NCBI GenBank assembly: GCA_964629655.1 | Contig: CAZVQU010000001.1 | Coordinates: forward strand, 420,056 to 484,055 | From: an uncultured Planctomycetia bacterium | Lineage (GTDB): Bacteria > Omnitrophota > Gorgyraeia > Duberdicusellales > 4484-171 | DNA length: 64,000 bases | Direction of reading: 5' to 3' | Part shown: positions 13,829-25,466 of the stretch, piece after piece | Numbering within the stretch: position 1 is the stretch's first letter | Layout: each line of letters opens with the position of its first letter | Notes under the pieces: generated by a model | What the model was told of the DNA's origin: nothing | Database searches by the model: none | What the model saw: only the letters and a program-made list of their open reading frames with translations | Made by a program: the position numbers and the translations under genes

Positions 13829-13901
13829 TTTTCTTTAGTCCTCCTTAAAAAATTTTTACAATTATCTCCTAAATCACTACATTTGTCAATGGTAAACCTT
13901 T

Positions 13902-18788: not shown

Positions 18789-19706
18789 TTACAGCTGGCC
18801 TAAACTTTTAGATATCTTTTTTTTAAGAACCTCAACTGTTTTGGGTTTATTTATTGACATAGCCAGAAACCCCTTCTTAGCCTTCTTTCTATCTATTGTA
18901 TCAATTTTAGTCAACAAGTAAAAAATTTTTTTCGTCTCTAGCAAAGATTCCTCGAATAGGGAAACCTCTTTCTTCAGCTCTTTATAGTCTTCCTCAGCTG
19001 ATAGCTTATCGCTTAACAACAAGAGTATTTTACTACGAAAAATGTGCCTTAAAAATTTATTTTCTGCCAAGTGTAAAGAATCTCTGCTCTTCTTGAAAGG
19101 TGGATTGTCCAAGACTACAAATCTCTCAAACTCATAGTCGCTATTGGCCCAAAAACAAGTGGTAGTAGTAAAAGCATATTCTGCCACCTTACGCTCCTGA
19201 CCGGTCAAGGCATTAAAAAGAGAGGTTTTCCCACTATTGGCAAATCCTAAAATGGCTACATCATTAGGAATACGATAATCTAAGGTTACTTCTTTCTCTT
19301 GGAATCCTTGGGCCGGTACAAGGTAATCACGCTTATAATTGCCCTTGCCGCCTCTTCCGCCCTTGCATATCAGGAATTCTGCGCCTTCGCCAACTAAATC
19401 AGCTATAACTTTATCATCTTCTAAGACTAGTGTCCCTGAAGGAACATTAACAATTAAATCTTCGGCGTCTCTGCCTTTCTGATTTTTCGCCCTTCCTTTA
19501 TCTCCATTAGAAGCAATAAACTTCTTACTGCCTTTAAACTTGCTCAAATCATAGAGATGAAGATTGACTCTTAAAATAACATCTCCACCTTTGCCTCCAT
19601 CTCCTCCGGAAGCAACCACTTTGCGTGAAGAGAGACTGGTCAAAGTTGAACTTCCTTGGCCACCTTTGCCTGAACGAAGATAGATTGTTACCTTATCGAT
19701 TATCAC
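18789..19706 (-). CDS. obg: GTPase Obg/CgtA
   Basis: Gly-rich Obg fold (GGDGGKGGDV, GGRGGKGN). G1 P-loop GFANSGKTSLFNALT. The YAFTTT switch region is present. Short (305 aa) with no extended C-terminal domain. Confidence 0.8.
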   Translation of the reverse strand: MIIDKVTIYLRSGKGGQGSSTLTSLSSRKVVASGGDGGKGGDVILRVNLHLYDLSKFKGSKKFIASNGDKGRAKNQKGRDAEDLIVNVPSGTLVLEDDKVIADLVGEGAEFLICKGGRGGKGNYKRDYLVPAQGFQEKEVTLDYRIPNDVAILGFANSGKTSLFNALTGQERKVAEYAFTTTTCFWANSDYEFERFVVLDNPPFKKSRDSLHLAENKFLRHIFRSKILLLLSDKLSAEEDYKELKKEVSLFEESLLETKKIFYLLTKIDTIDRKKAKKGFLAMSINKPKTVEVLKKKISKSLGQL

Positions 19707-20056
19707 TTTGATGAACTTTGAGAAACCTGCTTGCCAGCAGGTAGGGGCGATGTAACAATGCGGGTAATCTTAATAGCAGTGTAAATCTGACGATGTCCTC
19801 TTTTTATACGATATTTTTTTCTACGCTTGTACTTATAAACTATGACCTTCTTGCCTTTCTTCTCCTCGACTATTTGTGCTTCTACCCTTGCCTTATCAAC
19901 ATAAGGAGTCCCTATTTTCACTTTTTTGCCATCAACTAGAAGAAGAACCTTATCGAAAACGGCCTTATCCTTCTCGCCCTTTATCCTTTGGACTTCAAGG
20001 ATATCGCCCTTTTCTACCAAATATTGCTTTTTATTGATCTCAACTACTGCTAACAT
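19703..20056 (-). CDS. rplU: 50S ribosomal protein L21
   Basis: MLAVVEINKKQY...KRGHRQ matches the L21 family. Start set at the ATG at 20056, although longer TTG/ATG starts exist at 20083 and 20074. It overlaps obg by 4 nt. No rpmA (L27) gene lies between rplU and obg. Confidence 0.8.
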   Translation of the reverse strand: MLAVVEINKKQYLVEKGDILEVQRIKGEKDKAVFDKVLLLVDGKKVKIGTPYVDKARVEAQIVEEKKGKKVIVYKYKRRKKYRIKRGHRQIYTAIKITRIVTSPLPAGKQVSQSSSK

Positions 20057-20136
20057 AGGGTAAGATATTAACATATTGACCAAAATGCGTCAAGCCATAA
20101 AAAAGGGGGAAATTAAAATGGACACATGCCCATTTC

Positions 20137-23100
20137 TCACTCCTCGCTCGCGCAGCGCTCCAGGGAAATAATGTTAAACGTAAGACCGGCAGCATCTTTG
20201 AATTCCTGGACCATGCGCGCACCGAGGATCTGGGTTACGTTCCCAAAACCTCCTGAAATTTCTACGCTGGTCGTTAAATCAATTCCTCCTTTGGTGGCAC
20301 TCAGTGCTGACGATACAGACATCTGTTGATTACCCTCAACGTAATGATACACCGAATCATACTTCGGGGGTAAGTTAGAACGTGAAGGACGCTTTTGCGG
20401 TTCACGCGCAAACGCTAACTGAGGAAACTGAATATCCGGACGACGATTGACTATCTTTAACACTAGATCTGACCTGTCCGTCTGCTCGTCAAGGTATTTC
20501 ATGCGTCCGGGCACATAAAAATACTGCTTACCGGGGACGTTGAGCCGGTTAAAGAACTTTTCTTTACTCATACCTTCAATGGAAAAACCTTCAATCAGGC
20601 TAAAGAATGCGACACCATCTTTTTCCAGCACCCGCTTTACTTCACTAATTAAGACATGCTTATTCTTTAGATACACACCGACGGCGACCGGAACTAATAC
20701 TCCTAAGAATTCACCATCTTCGTAAGGCAGGCCGTTCTCAACATCCCAGAGCTTTAATCTACTGCGAAAATCATGCATAAACCGATCAAACAGCATTTCG
20801 CGGGCTTCAAAGCTTACCGCGTTGATTCTTTGCTTCATCAAGCCATAATTTGGTAAATACAACTCTTCTTTATTGATGAATTGTAATTCAATATTAGGAA
20901 AATTTTCCTGGATATCCTGAACAACAACCCCGGCGCCCACCCCGATAATCAGTAACTTCTTAGGACTTTCCTTTGTCGAGCGGCGATTAAGTTCATCAAG
21001 GAATTGTGAAACTTCCCCTTCAAAAATACGATCATCGACCCAAAGCCCGCGGGTAGTATTATTCATCCCGTAAGGATTCTTAATTGAAGATGAGGCTGCG
21101 CTACCGCCGGTGATACTCAAAGGTTGCTGGTAATCATCACTTTGCTTTATTTCTCCCCGCGGCCGCACATCCCGTAAAGAAATATTCTTAATGACCCTTA
21201 CATATTCCGGCCACCCTCCACCTTGCTCTGCATTCTCAGCGATGTATTTTATGGCTTTACTGTATACCGATGAAAATTGGCTCTGATCGATACTATATTT
21301 ACGCATTAGTAATGCTACCTGAAGGTTCACATCTGCGGAAACTCTGGCACCAATTTCATGATGTTCTGAGTAATGATCATAGGGCTCCAATATGTCATCG
21401 GTCAACCGAGCAGTGGGAACCAGCGACAAGGTACCGTATGTGCCCAACACCTGATTGCGGGCCGATTGAAACTCTTCACTGCTTGTATCCAGTTGCAATA
21501 GTTTCCTTTTGTGCACAGAGGTATCAAACGTTGCCTCCTGTTCGATAAATCCTCCCAGATAATAGAGTTCCGACGGCGTAAGAAAGGTAATAATCCCGGG
21601 AATACTTTCTCCGGAACTTGTTAATAATTGTCGCAGGCGCCGATAGCCAAGAACCCGCTCTAACCATGATAACGTTTGTTCAGTTGGAAAATTAGTATTT
21701 TTTAACACCTCCTTGGCAAGTTCTGTGCGATGATAGGCATAGGTAAGCACTTCCGAGAAATGATGAATAAAGCTAGCCCGGTTCGCCAGCGCAAAACCAA
21801 ATCGATCAGCAAATTCATGATTAACTTGTTTGTCTTTCTCATTGTCAATAACAAATCCTTTATATCCTTGACTATTCTCAAGGATAAGGAACTCATACAA
21901 ATGTGCGATCTCACTACTTAAACTGAATGCACCTCCCTGTATGCTCACTTCCGTAATCATCGCCAATGGTGATTGGAGGGAAATATTGTCACGGTTAAGC
22001 AAACCAGTAGAAAATGATCCACCACCCCAGGGATTACTCATATAAAAATACCATCGATGACGATGCATGAATCCCTTGGGCAATAACGCTAGCACCGAAT
22101 CATCCCATAACCGCAGATACTGCGCATAAGCCAAACCCCAGAGAAAATCTCCTAAATCATCTTGGTTTATTTCCTGCTGTCGTAATATGCCCTTGATTTT
22201 TTCTGCCTCCCGAACAGAACGTGCTCGATTTCCTCCAGGAACAAGCGATTCGTTTAATGCAAGCATTAAAAGATCCTGGACACCCATTGCCTGTATTTCT
22301 CGATCACTATAGTATCCATTCTGTCTTGCTTTGTGACGAATGATGGGAACTACAACTGTATCTATCCATGATTGATACCCGCCAACCATATCACCAGTTA
22401 CCAGACTGATTAAAGCATTTTCTGCCTCAACAGAGGATATTACTTCGTCTCTGGCCAGTCTTACCAGGAGAGAAAGACAACCATGAAAGAGCTTCGTCAT
22501 TTCGTCTTTTCGATCATAATCTTTCATAGTATTGATTTCTCTCATGCGATTAACGTAAGTCTCAACCGTTGCCACACTCGATACGGGCACAACTTCAAAC
22601 AGGACAAACATATTCCAATATTTTCTATACGTATCCACCTGCGCTGCCATCAGCCGCAATATGTCCTCTAAAACTTTAGCATCACCCCTCCACTTATGTG
22701 TCGTTCCCACAAACGCATAAAACAAGCGCTTCATCGAATCATCCTGGCAGGCGACAGGCAACGGAACCACTTTTAAAAGAATTGCTCTTCTTTGAGGAGA
22801 GAGGCGACTTAATTGATGAAAAACTTCGCTAACATAGTAATCAGATATGAGCTTTCTAAAAATAGTAGCAAGACTTACATCGCTTCCCAAAACAGTTTTC
22901 CATATATCAACTCCCCCCGGTACCGACGTTATTTTCCCTTGTGAGAATCCAATGTAATTTAAGGTGGGAATCAAATTGTAACTAATATTCGCTACATGCT
23001 TACTGTTCATCCAGGCATAGGCATCAATGTGATCGAGAACAAATAATTGTTTCTCTAGATTTATCTTGGACAGAGGGGTAATGATGTATTCTTTGAATTT

Positions 23101-25293
23101 CTTAAGTTCTTCTCGTGAATTTATCTCTCCTTCAATACTGATGGCAATCCTTTGCCGAACAACATCATCAAACTCACTAAGCAACGCTTCTTTTTCAACG
23201 GCAATGCGAGCCTGTTCATCCGGATAACGCACATAAATATCAACACCTGATAAATAATGTGACGGTTCGTTCGTTTCCCATGTCTTGTACAAAACATCCT
23301 GCGAGAAGGGAGCATCGGGCGTAACGTTAACTGCAAAAGGCTTGACCGCTAAAGATGTTTTCTCAGCATAGGCGTTAATTTTATCAAATACTGCAACCGG
23401 ATCGATCCCTACAAGATATTCGGTAGTATACGTTTCCTGAATGACCAATTTTACCTTATCGCCTAAGGCAGTTTTGAGCACTCTCCCTGCAGTATCAATA
23501 TTTGCCTTCTTATAATCGCTGAACCCTGCAGCGACGTGCCTACTACCGGCAAAGCCGATGATCTTTGCATGAGGATTCTTTTTTAATATTTCAAAGACAT
23601 GTAAGGCCATCCCTTCATCGACCGTCACTCGCTCTCCCTGAGCATTCGTTACATACCCATACTCATCTCCCATGCCAGGAACGGTTGTATGTGCGGTACG
23701 TGGATCAAAAGCAGTCACCTTGATACCGGCGCTGCGAGCAGCACTGAAAATATCTTCATAGGCCGCAAAAGCTGCTTCAGGAAATCCCACGGGTATGTCG
23801 GAATAAATAATTCCGTCAAGCATCCTTGGGTTACCGCTTTTCATGTAAAGATCGATGTACTCTTGATACTGCTCGTCTATCTCAAGAACGATATCGGTCA
23901 ATCCGCGGTCCCGCATGATACTCATTACATTAACCATGACATTCTTATGATCTACACTGGAATGTTCTTCACCAAGCATAACCACCTGCGCTCCTTGTTC
24001 AAAAAGATCAACGATAGTCTGGGTGATGTTTGTCCGGGCGTTTTGTTCAATGTACTGCATCACTGATGCTTCAGAGGCTAATATCGGCTCGGGCACTGTC
24101 AGCGTAAGTGTTTTAACCGGAGCGATGCTACATGCAGTAAGAAACATCGTTCCCAGTGTGAAGAATGTCCGACGCGTCATGCGTATTGGCGATGAACTCA
24201 CCGAGACATTGAGCCACTCTTCGGAATCAGAAAATCCCAGGCCACCGGAAAAGTACCTCCGTTTGATTTGCCTTCGTTCATAGGGATCGTAATCTTTTCG
24301 TATGTAATTATAAATGCCTTTCTTAAAGGACTCGACATACTGGTCATAAATCGTGTTCTTTATATCTTTGTCTTCTATGTCGATACCGGTTACCTTATTT
24401 TTATCGATGTAATATTGATAAATTGAATTTCTTAATTTCTGCTTAAACCAGGCCGCCAGAATGACCGAATGATATATCTGCCTGAGCCTGGCAAAATGTT
24501 GTTTATGGTTTACTTCCCCTGAGAGTTCGGGAAGGATAGTTTCTTTCATGATGCAGGAAGTCACTTTATTGATTTGCTCGGCCTGGGTAAGTGGCTTCTC
24601 TTGCTGTTCGCTGTGGCGGGAGAGTGCAAGATAATCTTCTTCGAGAAGAACTTTTAAACTGGCGTCGGTAATCATGGCTATGGTTCCGTCTTCGATAACC
24701 TTCGCCTGTCCGGGCACAATCCAGACCTTATTAAACGTATTGACTGGAACGTTTATAGTGGCAGCAAGCTTGTATATCTCTTTATAAGTCATCTCCCAAT
24801 AGTCCTTACCGGTAGCAGTATCCGGATGCATGAATGATGCGATGAGTTGCTTTAATAAGTAATCCTGAGCCAGCATGTCTTTCCCCAGATCAGTGACGCC
24901 TAAGCTATCAGGAATTATCCTGTCCTGTTCATAAGGAGAAAGATTCACCCATAAATCCTGTTCAGGGGTAGTAAGCGCTGCCAGGAAATATTTGATAAGA
25001 TCGGAGGCTTCTTCTTCACTTATTTCATCCTTATCCTGGGTATCAATAACGAACTGAAGTTTAAGTGGGTCCTTGGGATCAAGCTGTATGCCTTTGAGTA
25101 CAGGATAAGAATGGGTATATGAAGGAGCGAGCAACTGTTGAGCTGACGGTAGATCAAGTGCTACAGCATGGGCTTGTTCATCATTTACGCCTAATCGCTG
25201 GACATAGAAATACATGGAGCCTGCTGCAAGACAAACTGCAACATAGAGCCCTATTGCCCTAAAACCAATAGTACCTTTCTTATGGTGAGTCAT
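20137..25293 (-). CDS. Giant (1718 aa) multi-domain membrane/lipoprotein: N-terminal TM segment, internal Tat-type lipoprotein signal, ChaN/Tiki/TraB-like GxxH domain, long helical middle, C-terminal spermidine-synthase-like Rossmann methyltransferase fold
   Basis: Single uninterrupted ORF. TM helix at residues 14-31. TRRTFFTLGTMFLTAC at residue ~372 fits a Tat motif plus lipobox. Paired GxxH motifs (GEEH, GSRH) follow. C-terminal GxGxG (LLIIGVGAGVVVQD) precedes an acidic residue, as in PABS/class I methyltransferases. Confidence 0.6.
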   Translation of the reverse strand: MTHHKKGTIGFRAIGLYVAVCLAAGSMYFYVQRLGVNDEQAHAVALDLPSAQQLLAPSYTHSYPVLKGIQLDPKDPLKLQFVIDTQDKDEISEEEASDLIKYFLAALTTPEQDLWVNLSPYEQDRIIPDSLGVTDLGKDMLAQDYLLKQLIASFMHPDTATGKDYWEMTYKEIYKLAATINVPVNTFNKVWIVPGQAKVIEDGTIAMITDASLKVLLEEDYLALSRHSEQQEKPLTQAEQINKVTSCIMKETILPELSGEVNHKQHFARLRQIYHSVILAAWFKQKLRNSIYQYYIDKNKVTGIDIEDKDIKNTIYDQYVESFKKGIYNYIRKDYDPYERRQIKRRYFSGGLGFSDSEEWLNVSVSSSPIRMTRRTFFTLGTMFLTACSIAPVKTLTLTVPEPILASEASVMQYIEQNARTNITQTIVDLFEQGAQVVMLGEEHSSVDHKNVMVNVMSIMRDRGLTDIVLEIDEQYQEYIDLYMKSGNPRMLDGIIYSDIPVGFPEAAFAAYEDIFSAARSAGIKVTAFDPRTAHTTVPGMGDEYGYVTNAQGERVTVDEGMALHVFEILKKNPHAKIIGFAGSRHVAAGFSDYKKANIDTAGRVLKTALGDKVKLVIQETYTTEYLVGIDPVAVFDKINAYAEKTSLAVKPFAVNVTPDAPFSQDVLYKTWETNEPSHYLSGVDIYVRYPDEQARIAVEKEALLSEFDDVVRQRIAISIEGEINSREELKKFKEYIITPLSKINLEKQLFVLDHIDAYAWMNSKHVANISYNLIPTLNYIGFSQGKITSVPGGVDIWKTVLGSDVSLATIFRKLISDYYVSEVFHQLSRLSPQRRAILLKVVPLPVACQDDSMKRLFYAFVGTTHKWRGDAKVLEDILRLMAAQVDTYRKYWNMFVLFEVVPVSSVATVETYVNRMREINTMKDYDRKDEMTKLFHGCLSLLVRLARDEVISSVEAENALISLVTGDMVGGYQSWIDTVVVPIIRHKARQNGYYSDREIQAMGVQDLLMLALNESLVPGGNRARSVREAEKIKGILRQQEINQDDLGDFLWGLAYAQYLRLWDDSVLALLPKGFMHRHRWYFYMSNPWGGGSFSTGLLNRDNISLQSPLAMITEVSIQGGAFSLSSEIAHLYEFLILENSQGYKGFVIDNEKDKQVNHEFADRFGFALANRASFIHHFSEVLTYAYHRTELAKEVLKNTNFPTEQTLSWLERVLGYRRLRQLLTSSGESIPGIITFLTPSELYYLGGFIEQEATFDTSVHKRKLLQLDTSSEEFQSARNQVLGTYGTLSLVPTARLTDDILEPYDHYSEHHEIGARVSADVNLQVALLMRKYSIDQSQFSSVYSKAIKYIAENAEQGGGWPEYVRVIKNISLRDVRPRGEIKQSDDYQQPLSITGGSAASSSIKNPYGMNNTTRGLWVDDRIFEGEVSQFLDELNRRSTKESPKKLLIIGVGAGVVVQDIQENFPNIELQFINKEELYLPNYGLMKQRINAVSFEAREMLFDRFMHDFRSRLKLWDVENGLPYEDGEFLGVLVPVAVGVYLKNKHVLISEVKRVLEKDGVAFFSLIEGFSIEGMSKEKFFNRLNVPGKQYFYVPGRMKYLDEQTDRSDLVLKIVNRRPDIQFPQLAFAREPQKRPSRSNLPPKYDSVYHYVEGNQQMSVSSALSATKGGIDLTTSVEISGGFGNVTQILGARMVQEFKDAAGLTFNIISLERCASEE

Positions 25294-25466
25294 ACAACTT
25301 ACCTTATATATAAATGTACCATATACAAAGAGTGGTTTTTAGAGTAATGGAAGGATGAAATGAAAGCGTTTACGGAAAAGAATGGGCATGCTTCTATTTT
25401 TGGCTGAATCTGTGGTGAACAAAAAAAATAGAAGCGTTGTCCCTGTTTAATTTATCTAAATCCAGC

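Follow-up and report, generated by a model that had tools for sequence, protein, structure and literature searches.

A giant Omnitrophota gene inserted upstream of rplU belongs to a protein family with conserved ends around exchangeable cargo

Introduction

How did a gene for a 1718-residue protein come to stand directly in front of the ribosomal protein gene rplU of an Omnitrophota bacterium, and what might such a protein do? The question is raised by a stretch of 64,000 nucleotides from contig CAZVQU010000001.1, here called the window, in which this giant gene occupies positions 20137..25293 of the minus strand as an uninterrupted open reading frame (ORF) running from an ATG start to the stop codon at 20137-20139. 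A first reading of the letters and translated ORFs, made without database searches (the sequence-only reading), had described a 5.2-kb ORF among genes of at most 2.9 kb lying directly upstream of rplU, and both statements hold: the giant gene is the longest ORF of the window, the runner-up comprising 958 residues (2.9 kb), and the rplU ORF (19703-20083, likely ATG at 20056) adjoins it directly downstream. Four contigs assembled independently of one another carry a gene call for this very protein, in each case between the same neighbours.

Omnitrophota are widespread, uncultured bacteria of ultra-small size that are thought to prey on other cells or to depend on them, and their many long proteins are largely unexplained. 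We show that the giant gene is an insertion of one gene with foreign codon usage, which we read as horizontally acquired, placed between the terminator region of an RRM gene and the rplU promoter, and that it is an ordinary member of an extraordinary, undescribed family in which a conserved head and a conserved tail enclose exchangeable cargo. We are highly confident that the gene is both an insertion and a member of this family. The giant gene leads to a family of thousands, in which almost any cargo can stand between the shared head and tail.

The giant gene is an insertion between an RRM gene and rplU

The minus strand of the window reads, in order, an ORF resembling the metH activation domain, a metH-like gene, a small NifU-like gene, a gene for an RRM-type RNA-binding protein (RRM gene), the giant gene, rplU, obg, proB and proA. 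Related loci were obtained by a scan with the neighbouring metH-like protein. Three of them, L008, L009 and L010 (metH 77%, 71% and 72% identical to that of the window), show the order metH, RRM gene, rplU, obg and proB, with proA next in L009 and L010, and have a gap of only about 100-140 nucleotides (nt), containing no gene, between the RRM gene and rplU. Alignment of the intergenic regions reveals that the sequence following the RRM gene is common to the window and all three relatives, and that the block GCTTGACGCAyTTTGryCAATATGTTArTAT 5' of rplU is conserved in the same four genomes. In the window this block lies at 20065..20093 (minus strand), where a consensus scan also places a rplU promoter-like site (TTGACG, 17 nt, TAATAT and a TG extension). 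Between the two common blocks the window holds the giant gene and about 100-130 nt of its own upstream sequence, giving an inserted segment of approximately 20125..25390 relative to the three relatives, with ends uncertain by about 50 nt and an insertion point in or beside the ancestral terminator hairpin. As the junction is empty in three relatives while the flanks and the rplU promoter align, the giant gene is an insertion. An orthologue at the same locus, which the sequence-only reading had named as the sign of an ancestral gene, is present in none of the three relatives that keep the RRM-rplU junction, and the suggestion of horizontal acquisition made in that reading is supported. Since rplU has its own promoter, kept in four genomes, co-transcription with the giant gene is not required. 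The locus represents a clean, datable example of a family gene arriving in a ribosomal-protein neighbourhood, leaving the rplU promoter undisturbed.

The intergenic region between the RRM gene and the giant gene (25294..25466, minus strand) is composite, its first 60-90 nt or so aligning with the region following the RRM gene in the relatives and the remainder being specific to the insert. This insert-specific part contains the extended -10-like site TGGTACATT and an AAGG ribosome-binding site. Extended -10 sequences resembling TGGTATATT recur 20-110 nt 5' of family genes at four of ten loci (window 25305-25320, L084, L089 and L091), consistent with each family gene having its own promoter.

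The insert consists of the giant gene only and contains no transposase or integrase. An Rfam scan of the locus returned no match, and in a tRNA scan the sole tRNA lies 4 kb from the insert. We considered a 10-bp inverted repeat, CATGCCCATT at 25381-25390 and AATGGGCATG at 20125-20134, located 97 nt before the start codon and 2 nt past the stop, as the end of a mobile element and rejected it, since 13 of 300 shuffles match it and it is absent at nine other family loci.

Two of the relatives closest by metH (81% identical) carry other genes at the corresponding place: in L005 (4552-5996) an AbiEi/AbiEii-like pair, assigned by eye from the translations, follows metH-NifU, and in L007 (12743-13378) an AbiEi-like ORF follows before the contig ends. 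In neither are the RRM gene and rplU found at that place downstream of metH-NifU, which shows the stretch downstream of metH being variable in this lineage.

The insert differs from its surroundings in codon usage

The giant gene has a G+C content of 0.434 compared to a mean of 0.383 for the 51 other ORFs of the window (rank 4 of 52), and at third codon positions (GC3) it reaches 0.420 compared to 0.334, ranking first of 52. In a bootstrap drawing random samples of 1718 codons from the window's other genes this corresponds to a GC3 z of 7.7, and the most G+C-rich stretch of 5157 nt in the window begins at 20101, i.e. it is the giant ORF. Per 1000 codons, the giant gene and the other genes show 10.5 vs 4.0 CGG, 11.1 vs 3.0 CGC, 19.2 vs 13.4 GCC and 15.1 vs 6.8 CTG. 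The shift is visible in synonymous choice: AGA and AGG make up 29% of Arg codons in the giant gene and 63% in the others (AGA alone 15% vs 42%), CGC 21% compared to 7% elsewhere, GCT 22% vs 49% of Ala codons and CTG 16% vs 7% of Leu codons. Runs of at least five A/T occur at 2.5 per kb in the giant gene and at 8.2 per kb in the others. The sequence-only reading had sensed a deviating composition, with fewer A/T runs and more CGG, CGC, GCC and CTG codons, and had asked whether the gene would prove indistinguishable from average; computed against the window's other genes, its statistics are distinct from them.

GC3 is raised in all five segments of the gene (0.39-0.51), from which we conclude that the giant gene is foreign as one unit. 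Nine other family genes, compared as a control to their own genomic flanks, show GC3 z values of -2.3 to +0.9 deviating in both directions, so high GC3 is not a family trait, and a family-intrinsic GC3 bias as the source of the composition shift is ruled out by this control. The family genes in L087, L090 and L092 are shifted the opposite way, with z about -2.2.

Conserved ends define an Omnitrophota family

A search with the full protein yielded more than 3,371 significant matches among 8,000 scored candidates. BLAST alignments of 119 listed relatives match only residues 1 to about 355 of the query, at 41-56% identity and always via their own N-terminus, and the coverage of the query by family matches falls to nearly zero past residue 400 or so. 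The family proteins are 950-2,900 residues long. All 21 organism-named matches among 120 listed are from Omnitrophota, and wherever matches carry an organism name the family is specific to this phylum. A scan of species-representative genomes with the full protein returned no relative.

Two elements are shared by the family. The conserved N-module (head) covers about residues 45-351 of the giant protein (24241..25161, minus strand), ends with RRYFSGG and is recognised by a hidden Markov model (HMM) with E = 9e-159. The C-terminal tag (tail, C-tag; 20140..20331, minus strand) covers about residues 1655-1718, with GGIDL at 1669 and GLTFNIISLE at 1703 (local HMM, E = 3e-7). Its pattern of about 65 residues, GGID[LF] ... 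G[FL]x[FP]xII, was recognised by reading the C-termini of the family, and the C-tag HMM finds it within the last 110 residues in 110 of 120 family proteins; among the ten that lack the tag, five are labelled partial. A search with the C-tag profile returned only 16 short contig-edge fragments. An invariant Gly-Gly pair closes the N-module (YFSGG), and another opens the C-tag (GGID).

Neither the N-module nor the C-tag has a match in Pfam or NCBIfam, and the N-module has none among solved structures. GGxGxD and LPxTG are absent, and no tag model of the type IX, RTX/type I, LPXTG or PEP-CTERM type in NCBIfam or Pfam matches the C-tag. We found no description of head or tail in the literature searched, which for the Omnitrophota papers extends to what their texts return to search terms. 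The giant gene had been taken to encode a mosaic with a domain combination that could not be matched to a characterised protein. It remains true that no single known family accounts for the whole protein; the combination itself is a normal product of cargo shuffling in the family, and the mosaic view missed that the first 355 or so and the last 65 or so residues are the ends by which a family of more than 3,371 proteins is recognised.

One stand-alone ORF of 276 residues (L085 23126-23956) matches the N-module core only (HMM positions 46-311), has neither signal nor cargo nor tag, and stands ahead of two large genes in which Pfam finds no domain; perhaps it is a family gene that was split or has decayed.

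Three cargo modules in the giant protein

An exhaustive HMMER search with the payload between the two ends (residues 430-1629) yielded 68 proteins, which split the cargo into three modules, each found separately in other proteins. A word-index search with the payload alone returned only the giant protein itself, and sequence searches of the PDB with the three modules and with a profile of module B gave nothing significant.

Module A (residues 430-700 or so; 23194..24006, minus strand) is a domain of the ChaN/Tiki/erythromycin-esterase superfamily, matching Pfam PF04187 over residues 434-532 with E = 2e-9 and 38.2 bits (cut-off 27.7). It has two GxxH motifs, GEEH at 441-444 and GSRH at 583-586, corresponding to those of the Tiki/EreA-type active site in this superfamily, and its homologues match PF04187 and PF05139. 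The sequence-only reading was right in seeing a GxxH hydrolase-like domain here.

Module B (residues 705-1377; 21163..23181, minus strand) is helical and has a thermolysin-like fold in its C-terminal half, with the motifs SEIAH (1127), NHEFADRFG (1158) and LTPSELYYLG (1238). The putative site is non-canonical, SExxH...ExxD, and lacks the HExxH zinc motif. The long helical stretch of the sequence-only reading is present, over about 670 residues, and is not featureless.

Module C (about residues 1400-1629; 20407..21096, minus strand) resembles class I S-adenosylmethionine (SAM) methyltransferases and has IIGVGAG at 1449, resembling their GxGxG SAM-binding motif. Its own match to Methyltransf_11 is weak (15.4 bits, cut-off 21.2, E = 0.03), and nine of ten module C homologues scanned pass this model. 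An identity as spermidine synthase/PABS finds no support, there being no PABS match in Pfam or NCBIfam. The same applies to the PABS-like fold proposed from the sequence alone; the homologues are generic class I methyltransferases.

Module A shares 49% identity with a stretch inside P0121, a protein from Omnitrophota. For modules A and B, the nearest relatives that carry a name all belong to Omnitrophota, the homologues of module C having no organism names, suggesting that the donor of the gene most likely lies within the phylum.

Between the N-module and module A lies the segment MTRRTFFTLGTMFLTAC (24130..24180, minus strand; residues 372-388), beginning with a Met codon and resembling a twin-arginine translocation (Tat) signal with lipobox: T-R-R-T-F-F ... 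L-T-A-C at residues 373-388 comprises the twin arginine, the hydrophobic stretch and the lipobox Cys. A Tat-lipoprotein signal had been noticed before; it is there, in an internal position. As MTRRTFFTLGTMFLTAC begins at residue 372, past the N-module, it is not at the N-terminus of the polypeptide as Tat lipoprotein signals require, and no Shine-Dalgarno-like sequence is found upstream of its internal ATG. RR-x-F-L-K or lipobox segments also stand directly past the N-module in at least six other members (P0002, P0005, P0018, P0061, P0047 and P0037), and a Tat/lipobox-like segment precedes a ChaN-like domain deep within P0121. These internal segments look like the signal peptides of once independent genes captured whole behind the N-module.

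Cargo exchange and gain of family genes

Cargo is unrelated between family members. P0008 (2889 residues) carries N-module, TIM (647-910), pyruvate phosphate dikinase (PPDK; 962-1928), enolase (2384-2779) and C-tag in one chain, the cargo of P0105 is GAPDH, P0068 combines a peptidase M48 with an ABC1 kinase, and other members carry GAPDH, PGK, FBP aldolase/phosphatase or phosphoglucomutase. In ten neighbourhoods the family genes are single genes with their own upstream region amid housekeeping genes. M48 peptidase genes stand near three family copies, too few for a claim. P0046 and P0048 are adjacent paralogues; the giant gene is the only family copy in the window.

L090 shows the same gene order as the window, i.e. 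rplU, obg, proB, proA, cytidylyltransferase, phosphoglucomutase, acyltransferase, S1 and TyrRS, and has a different family gene, P0043 (1447 residues; L090 10001-14344), between acyltransferase and S1 and none before rplU. In the window the acyltransferase-S1 junction comprises 73 nt only (13829-13901). P0043 has a GC3 of 0.44 vs 0.58 in its neighbours, an outlier opposite to the giant gene. The opposite codon shifts, together with the L090 gene at another junction of the same cluster, indicate that insertion has happened repeatedly and independently, family genes having been gained several times over inside the phylum.

A role of phages in this movement is possible but rare. Among 2.9 million viral contigs, three carry an N-module gene; in one of them (L093 20-13582, IMG/VR) a gene of 1219 residues lies about 1.8 kb downstream of a 701-residue ORF, itself following a phage tail block of tape measure, minor tail and J-like central tail fibre genes.

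A possible role in export and sorting

The giant protein begins with a hydrophobic segment (residues 9-31; 25201..25269, minus strand) preceded by HHKK, read from the sequence as a Sec-type signal or signal anchor and agreeing with the transmembrane anchor seen in the sequence-only reading. Across the family, the flank ahead of this segment is more positive than the flank following it in 71 of 76 members (net +3.0 vs +0.3), AxA-type sites are present at the end of the segment in many members, and only 12-28 of 112 have a second hydrophobic segment within 130 residues past the N-module. The family N-terminus looks like a Sec signal peptide or signal anchor. In the query subfamily (N-termini of P0002-P0036; window 25255-25290, residues 2-13) a conserved [KR][KR]G-[TS]-I-S-F-[KR] precedes the hydrophobic segment, loosely recalling prepilin-type (class III) signals; the usual Glu at +5 is mostly absent, and Pfam N_methyl does not match these N-termini.

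The best explanation we can offer is that the giant gene is a horizontally moved member of a Sec-targeted, two-ended carrier family with a role in export or sorting, which we rate at just about an even chance. According to this model, the Sec-type N-terminal signal would take the protein across or into the cytoplasmic membrane, and the conserved head and tail would be recognised by a conserved machinery of the cell envelope for retention, sorting or secretion. The exchangeable middle would be cargo, which these ultra-small and host-associated bacteria would display on their envelope or release from it; in the giant protein it comprises a ChaN/Tiki-like metallohydrolase-type domain, a helical module with a thermolysin-like domain and a class I SAM-methyltransferase-like domain, all with putative activities. 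For export speak the positive N-terminal flanks, the AxA sites, the Tat/lipobox segments past the N-module and the location of P0060 (1714 residues), whose gene is flanked by gspE and gspF within a complete type II secretion/pseudopilin operon that has a secretin as its last gene (L087 7608-25145). A broader version, which we put forward tentatively and think is on the whole doubtful, is that head and tail mark a phylum-specific sorting or delivery route, absent from the sources checked, by which cytoplasm-type enzymes, among them whole glycolytic arrays, and captured precursors are exported to the envelope or into a host or prey cell, while the genes travel from one Omnitrophota genome to another as single-gene cassettes and settle between housekeeping operons. 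Should the two ends be sorting signals, their sequences would offer an easy way to compile the proteome that Omnitrophota export or display, and would raise the question why glycolytic and signalling enzymes belong to it.

Several points weigh against this explanation. Most family cargo needs ATP, NAD or SAM and would be idle outside the cytoplasm, as applies to the glycolytic enzymes, receiver domains, kinases, DnaJ and the methyltransferase of the giant protein. Topology was judged by a charge and hydrophobicity heuristic alone, the type II secretion context of P0060 is a single case, and no conserved partner gene recurs in the ten neighbourhoods. As to the horizontal movement, no donor, integrase or target duplication came to light for the insert, nor did any significant terminal repeat. 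The relatives nearest by metH (80-84%) give no information, since either the contig ends or metH is followed by another island or gene, so that the direction of the event is read from the three more distant genomes L008, L009 and L010.

The need for cytoplasmic cofactors keeps alive the view of the family as a membrane-tethered cytoplasmic scaffold, in which the N-terminal helix anchors only, head and tail assemble or cluster on the cytoplasmic face and the cargo works inside as membrane-bound arrays. This view accounts for a cargo in which domains of cytoplasmic type prevail (TIM, PPDK, enolase, GAPDH, PGK, receiver, HATPase, DnaJ and ABC1 kinase) and for the SAM required by the methyltransferase-like domain of the giant protein, and many long proteins of Omnitrophota are interpreted in a 2026 preprint as anchored in the inner membrane, with their domains in the cytoplasm (10.64898/2026.06.07.730766). 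However, the positive charge ahead of the hydrophobic segment predicts the N-terminus inside and the remainder outside, many N-termini resemble cleavable AxA signal peptides, the few members with a second hydrophobic segment are the only ones able to return the chain, and some cargo is of extracytoplasmic type (Tat/lipoprotein precursors and ChaN-like domains). We therefore regard the scaffold as unlikely, while giving it real weight.

Processing of a precursor would give the two ends another meaning, with the Gly-Gly of YFSGG and of GGID as cleavage sites at which leader and trailer are removed, releasing a cargo that its own Tat/lipoprotein signal could then export. The invariance of Gly-Gly at both module borders and the intact canonical Tat motifs just past the first Gly-Gly in several members would fit this, as would the C39 (double-glycine) peptidase domains reported for Omnitrophota giant proteins (10.1101/2023.11.21.568195). 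We consider it improbable, as no family-linked protease is present in the ten neighbourhoods and a leader of 300 residues with 41-56% identity far exceeds known double-glycine leaders; being compatible with either topology, it is less a competitor of the other explanations than a refinement of them.

Alternative origins of the gene

Turning from the function of the protein to the history of its gene, the giant gene might have been at its site in a common ancestor and been deleted in the relatives, its composition resulting from selection on a long, weakly expressed gene. This would sit well with the nearest relatives not being scorable at the RRM-rplU junction and with family genes having fewer A/T runs than their surroundings at nine of ten loci. 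It would require loss from three genomes at different distances, all without the gene and with intergenic regions that align cleanly, and it conflicts with the strong difference in synonymous codon choice, with other family genes having no consistent GC3 bias and with a payload for which 5.8 billion proteins include no further relative exceeding about 50% identity, making an ancestral gene very unlikely. A one-off mosaic from outside the lineage, the strong form of what the sequence-only reading had in mind, would explain the deviant composition and the absence of a full-length homologue besides the protein itself, and is hardly credible given an architecture that is standard for the family and N-module, C-tag and named nearest relatives of modules A and B that are all from Omnitrophota, the homologues of module C being unnamed.

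Relation to known systems

Several known systems resemble the family by analogy. The cargo of type IX secretion in Bacteroidota shares a Sec signal, variable domains, a conserved C-terminal sorting element (about 70-100 residues) and many paralogues per genome. In contrast, the tag of the family has no sequence match to this cargo in NCBIfam or Pfam, and the family adds an N-module of 300 residues, occurs in another phylum and has no linked secretion machinery. LapA-type type I adhesins likewise have two conserved ends around a variable middle, the N-terminal module retaining the protein at the envelope and the C-terminal 60 or so residues being the signal. Unlike these, the giant protein contains no RTX nonapeptides (two of 120 family members have any), has no adjacent ABC/MFP/TolC genes and shows no homology, and the family has an N-terminal hydrophobic Sec-like segment. 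Polymorphic toxins and MARTX effectors resemble the family in conserved trafficking parts, swappable payloads, many paralogues and frequent horizontal movement with composition anomalies. Their payloads are toxins, whereas those of the family are metabolic, regulatory and hydrolase-type with no adjacent immunity gene seen, and polymorphic toxins place the variable toxin at the C-terminus, where the family has its conserved tag.

The published giant proteins of Omnitrophota are 10-147 thousand residues long and described by their internal domains (10.1101/2023.11.21.568195; 10.64898/2026.06.07.730766). They share with the family the phylum, cargo types (methyltransferase, HATPase, PPDK_N, HEAT and phosphoglucomutase), an N-terminal signal peptide or transmembrane segment and occasional type II secretion/pilus neighbours; a shared N-module or C-tag, in contrast, did not emerge from searching the preprints for terms. 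The N-module is also absent from long proteins that have cargo modules of the giant gene (P0126, P0129, P0142 and P0168).

The individual modules depart from their nearest known families as well. Module A scores above the PF04187 threshold and carries the two GxxH motifs of the ChaN/Tiki/erythromycin-esterase group (PF04187, PF05139), but is internal to a 1718-residue protein and follows a Tat/lipobox-like segment, and haem binding or hydrolase activity is putative. Module B differs from the thermolysin-like gluzincins M4 and M36 in having SExxH instead of HExxH, as do most of its aligned homologues, and has no match to them at the sequence level in PDB or Pfam.

Further observations

In many bacteria rpmA, encoding L27, is located between rplU and obg. 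In the window the rplU ORF (19703-20083) and obg (18789-19706) overlap by 4 nt, with rpmA absent between them, and the same is found in L008-L010 and L090. Some contigs with metH 71-84% identical (L004, L005, L007 and L010) are labelled 'uncultured Planctomycetia' while sister contigs are labelled Omnitrophota; the Planctomycetia labels are probably automated mislabels.

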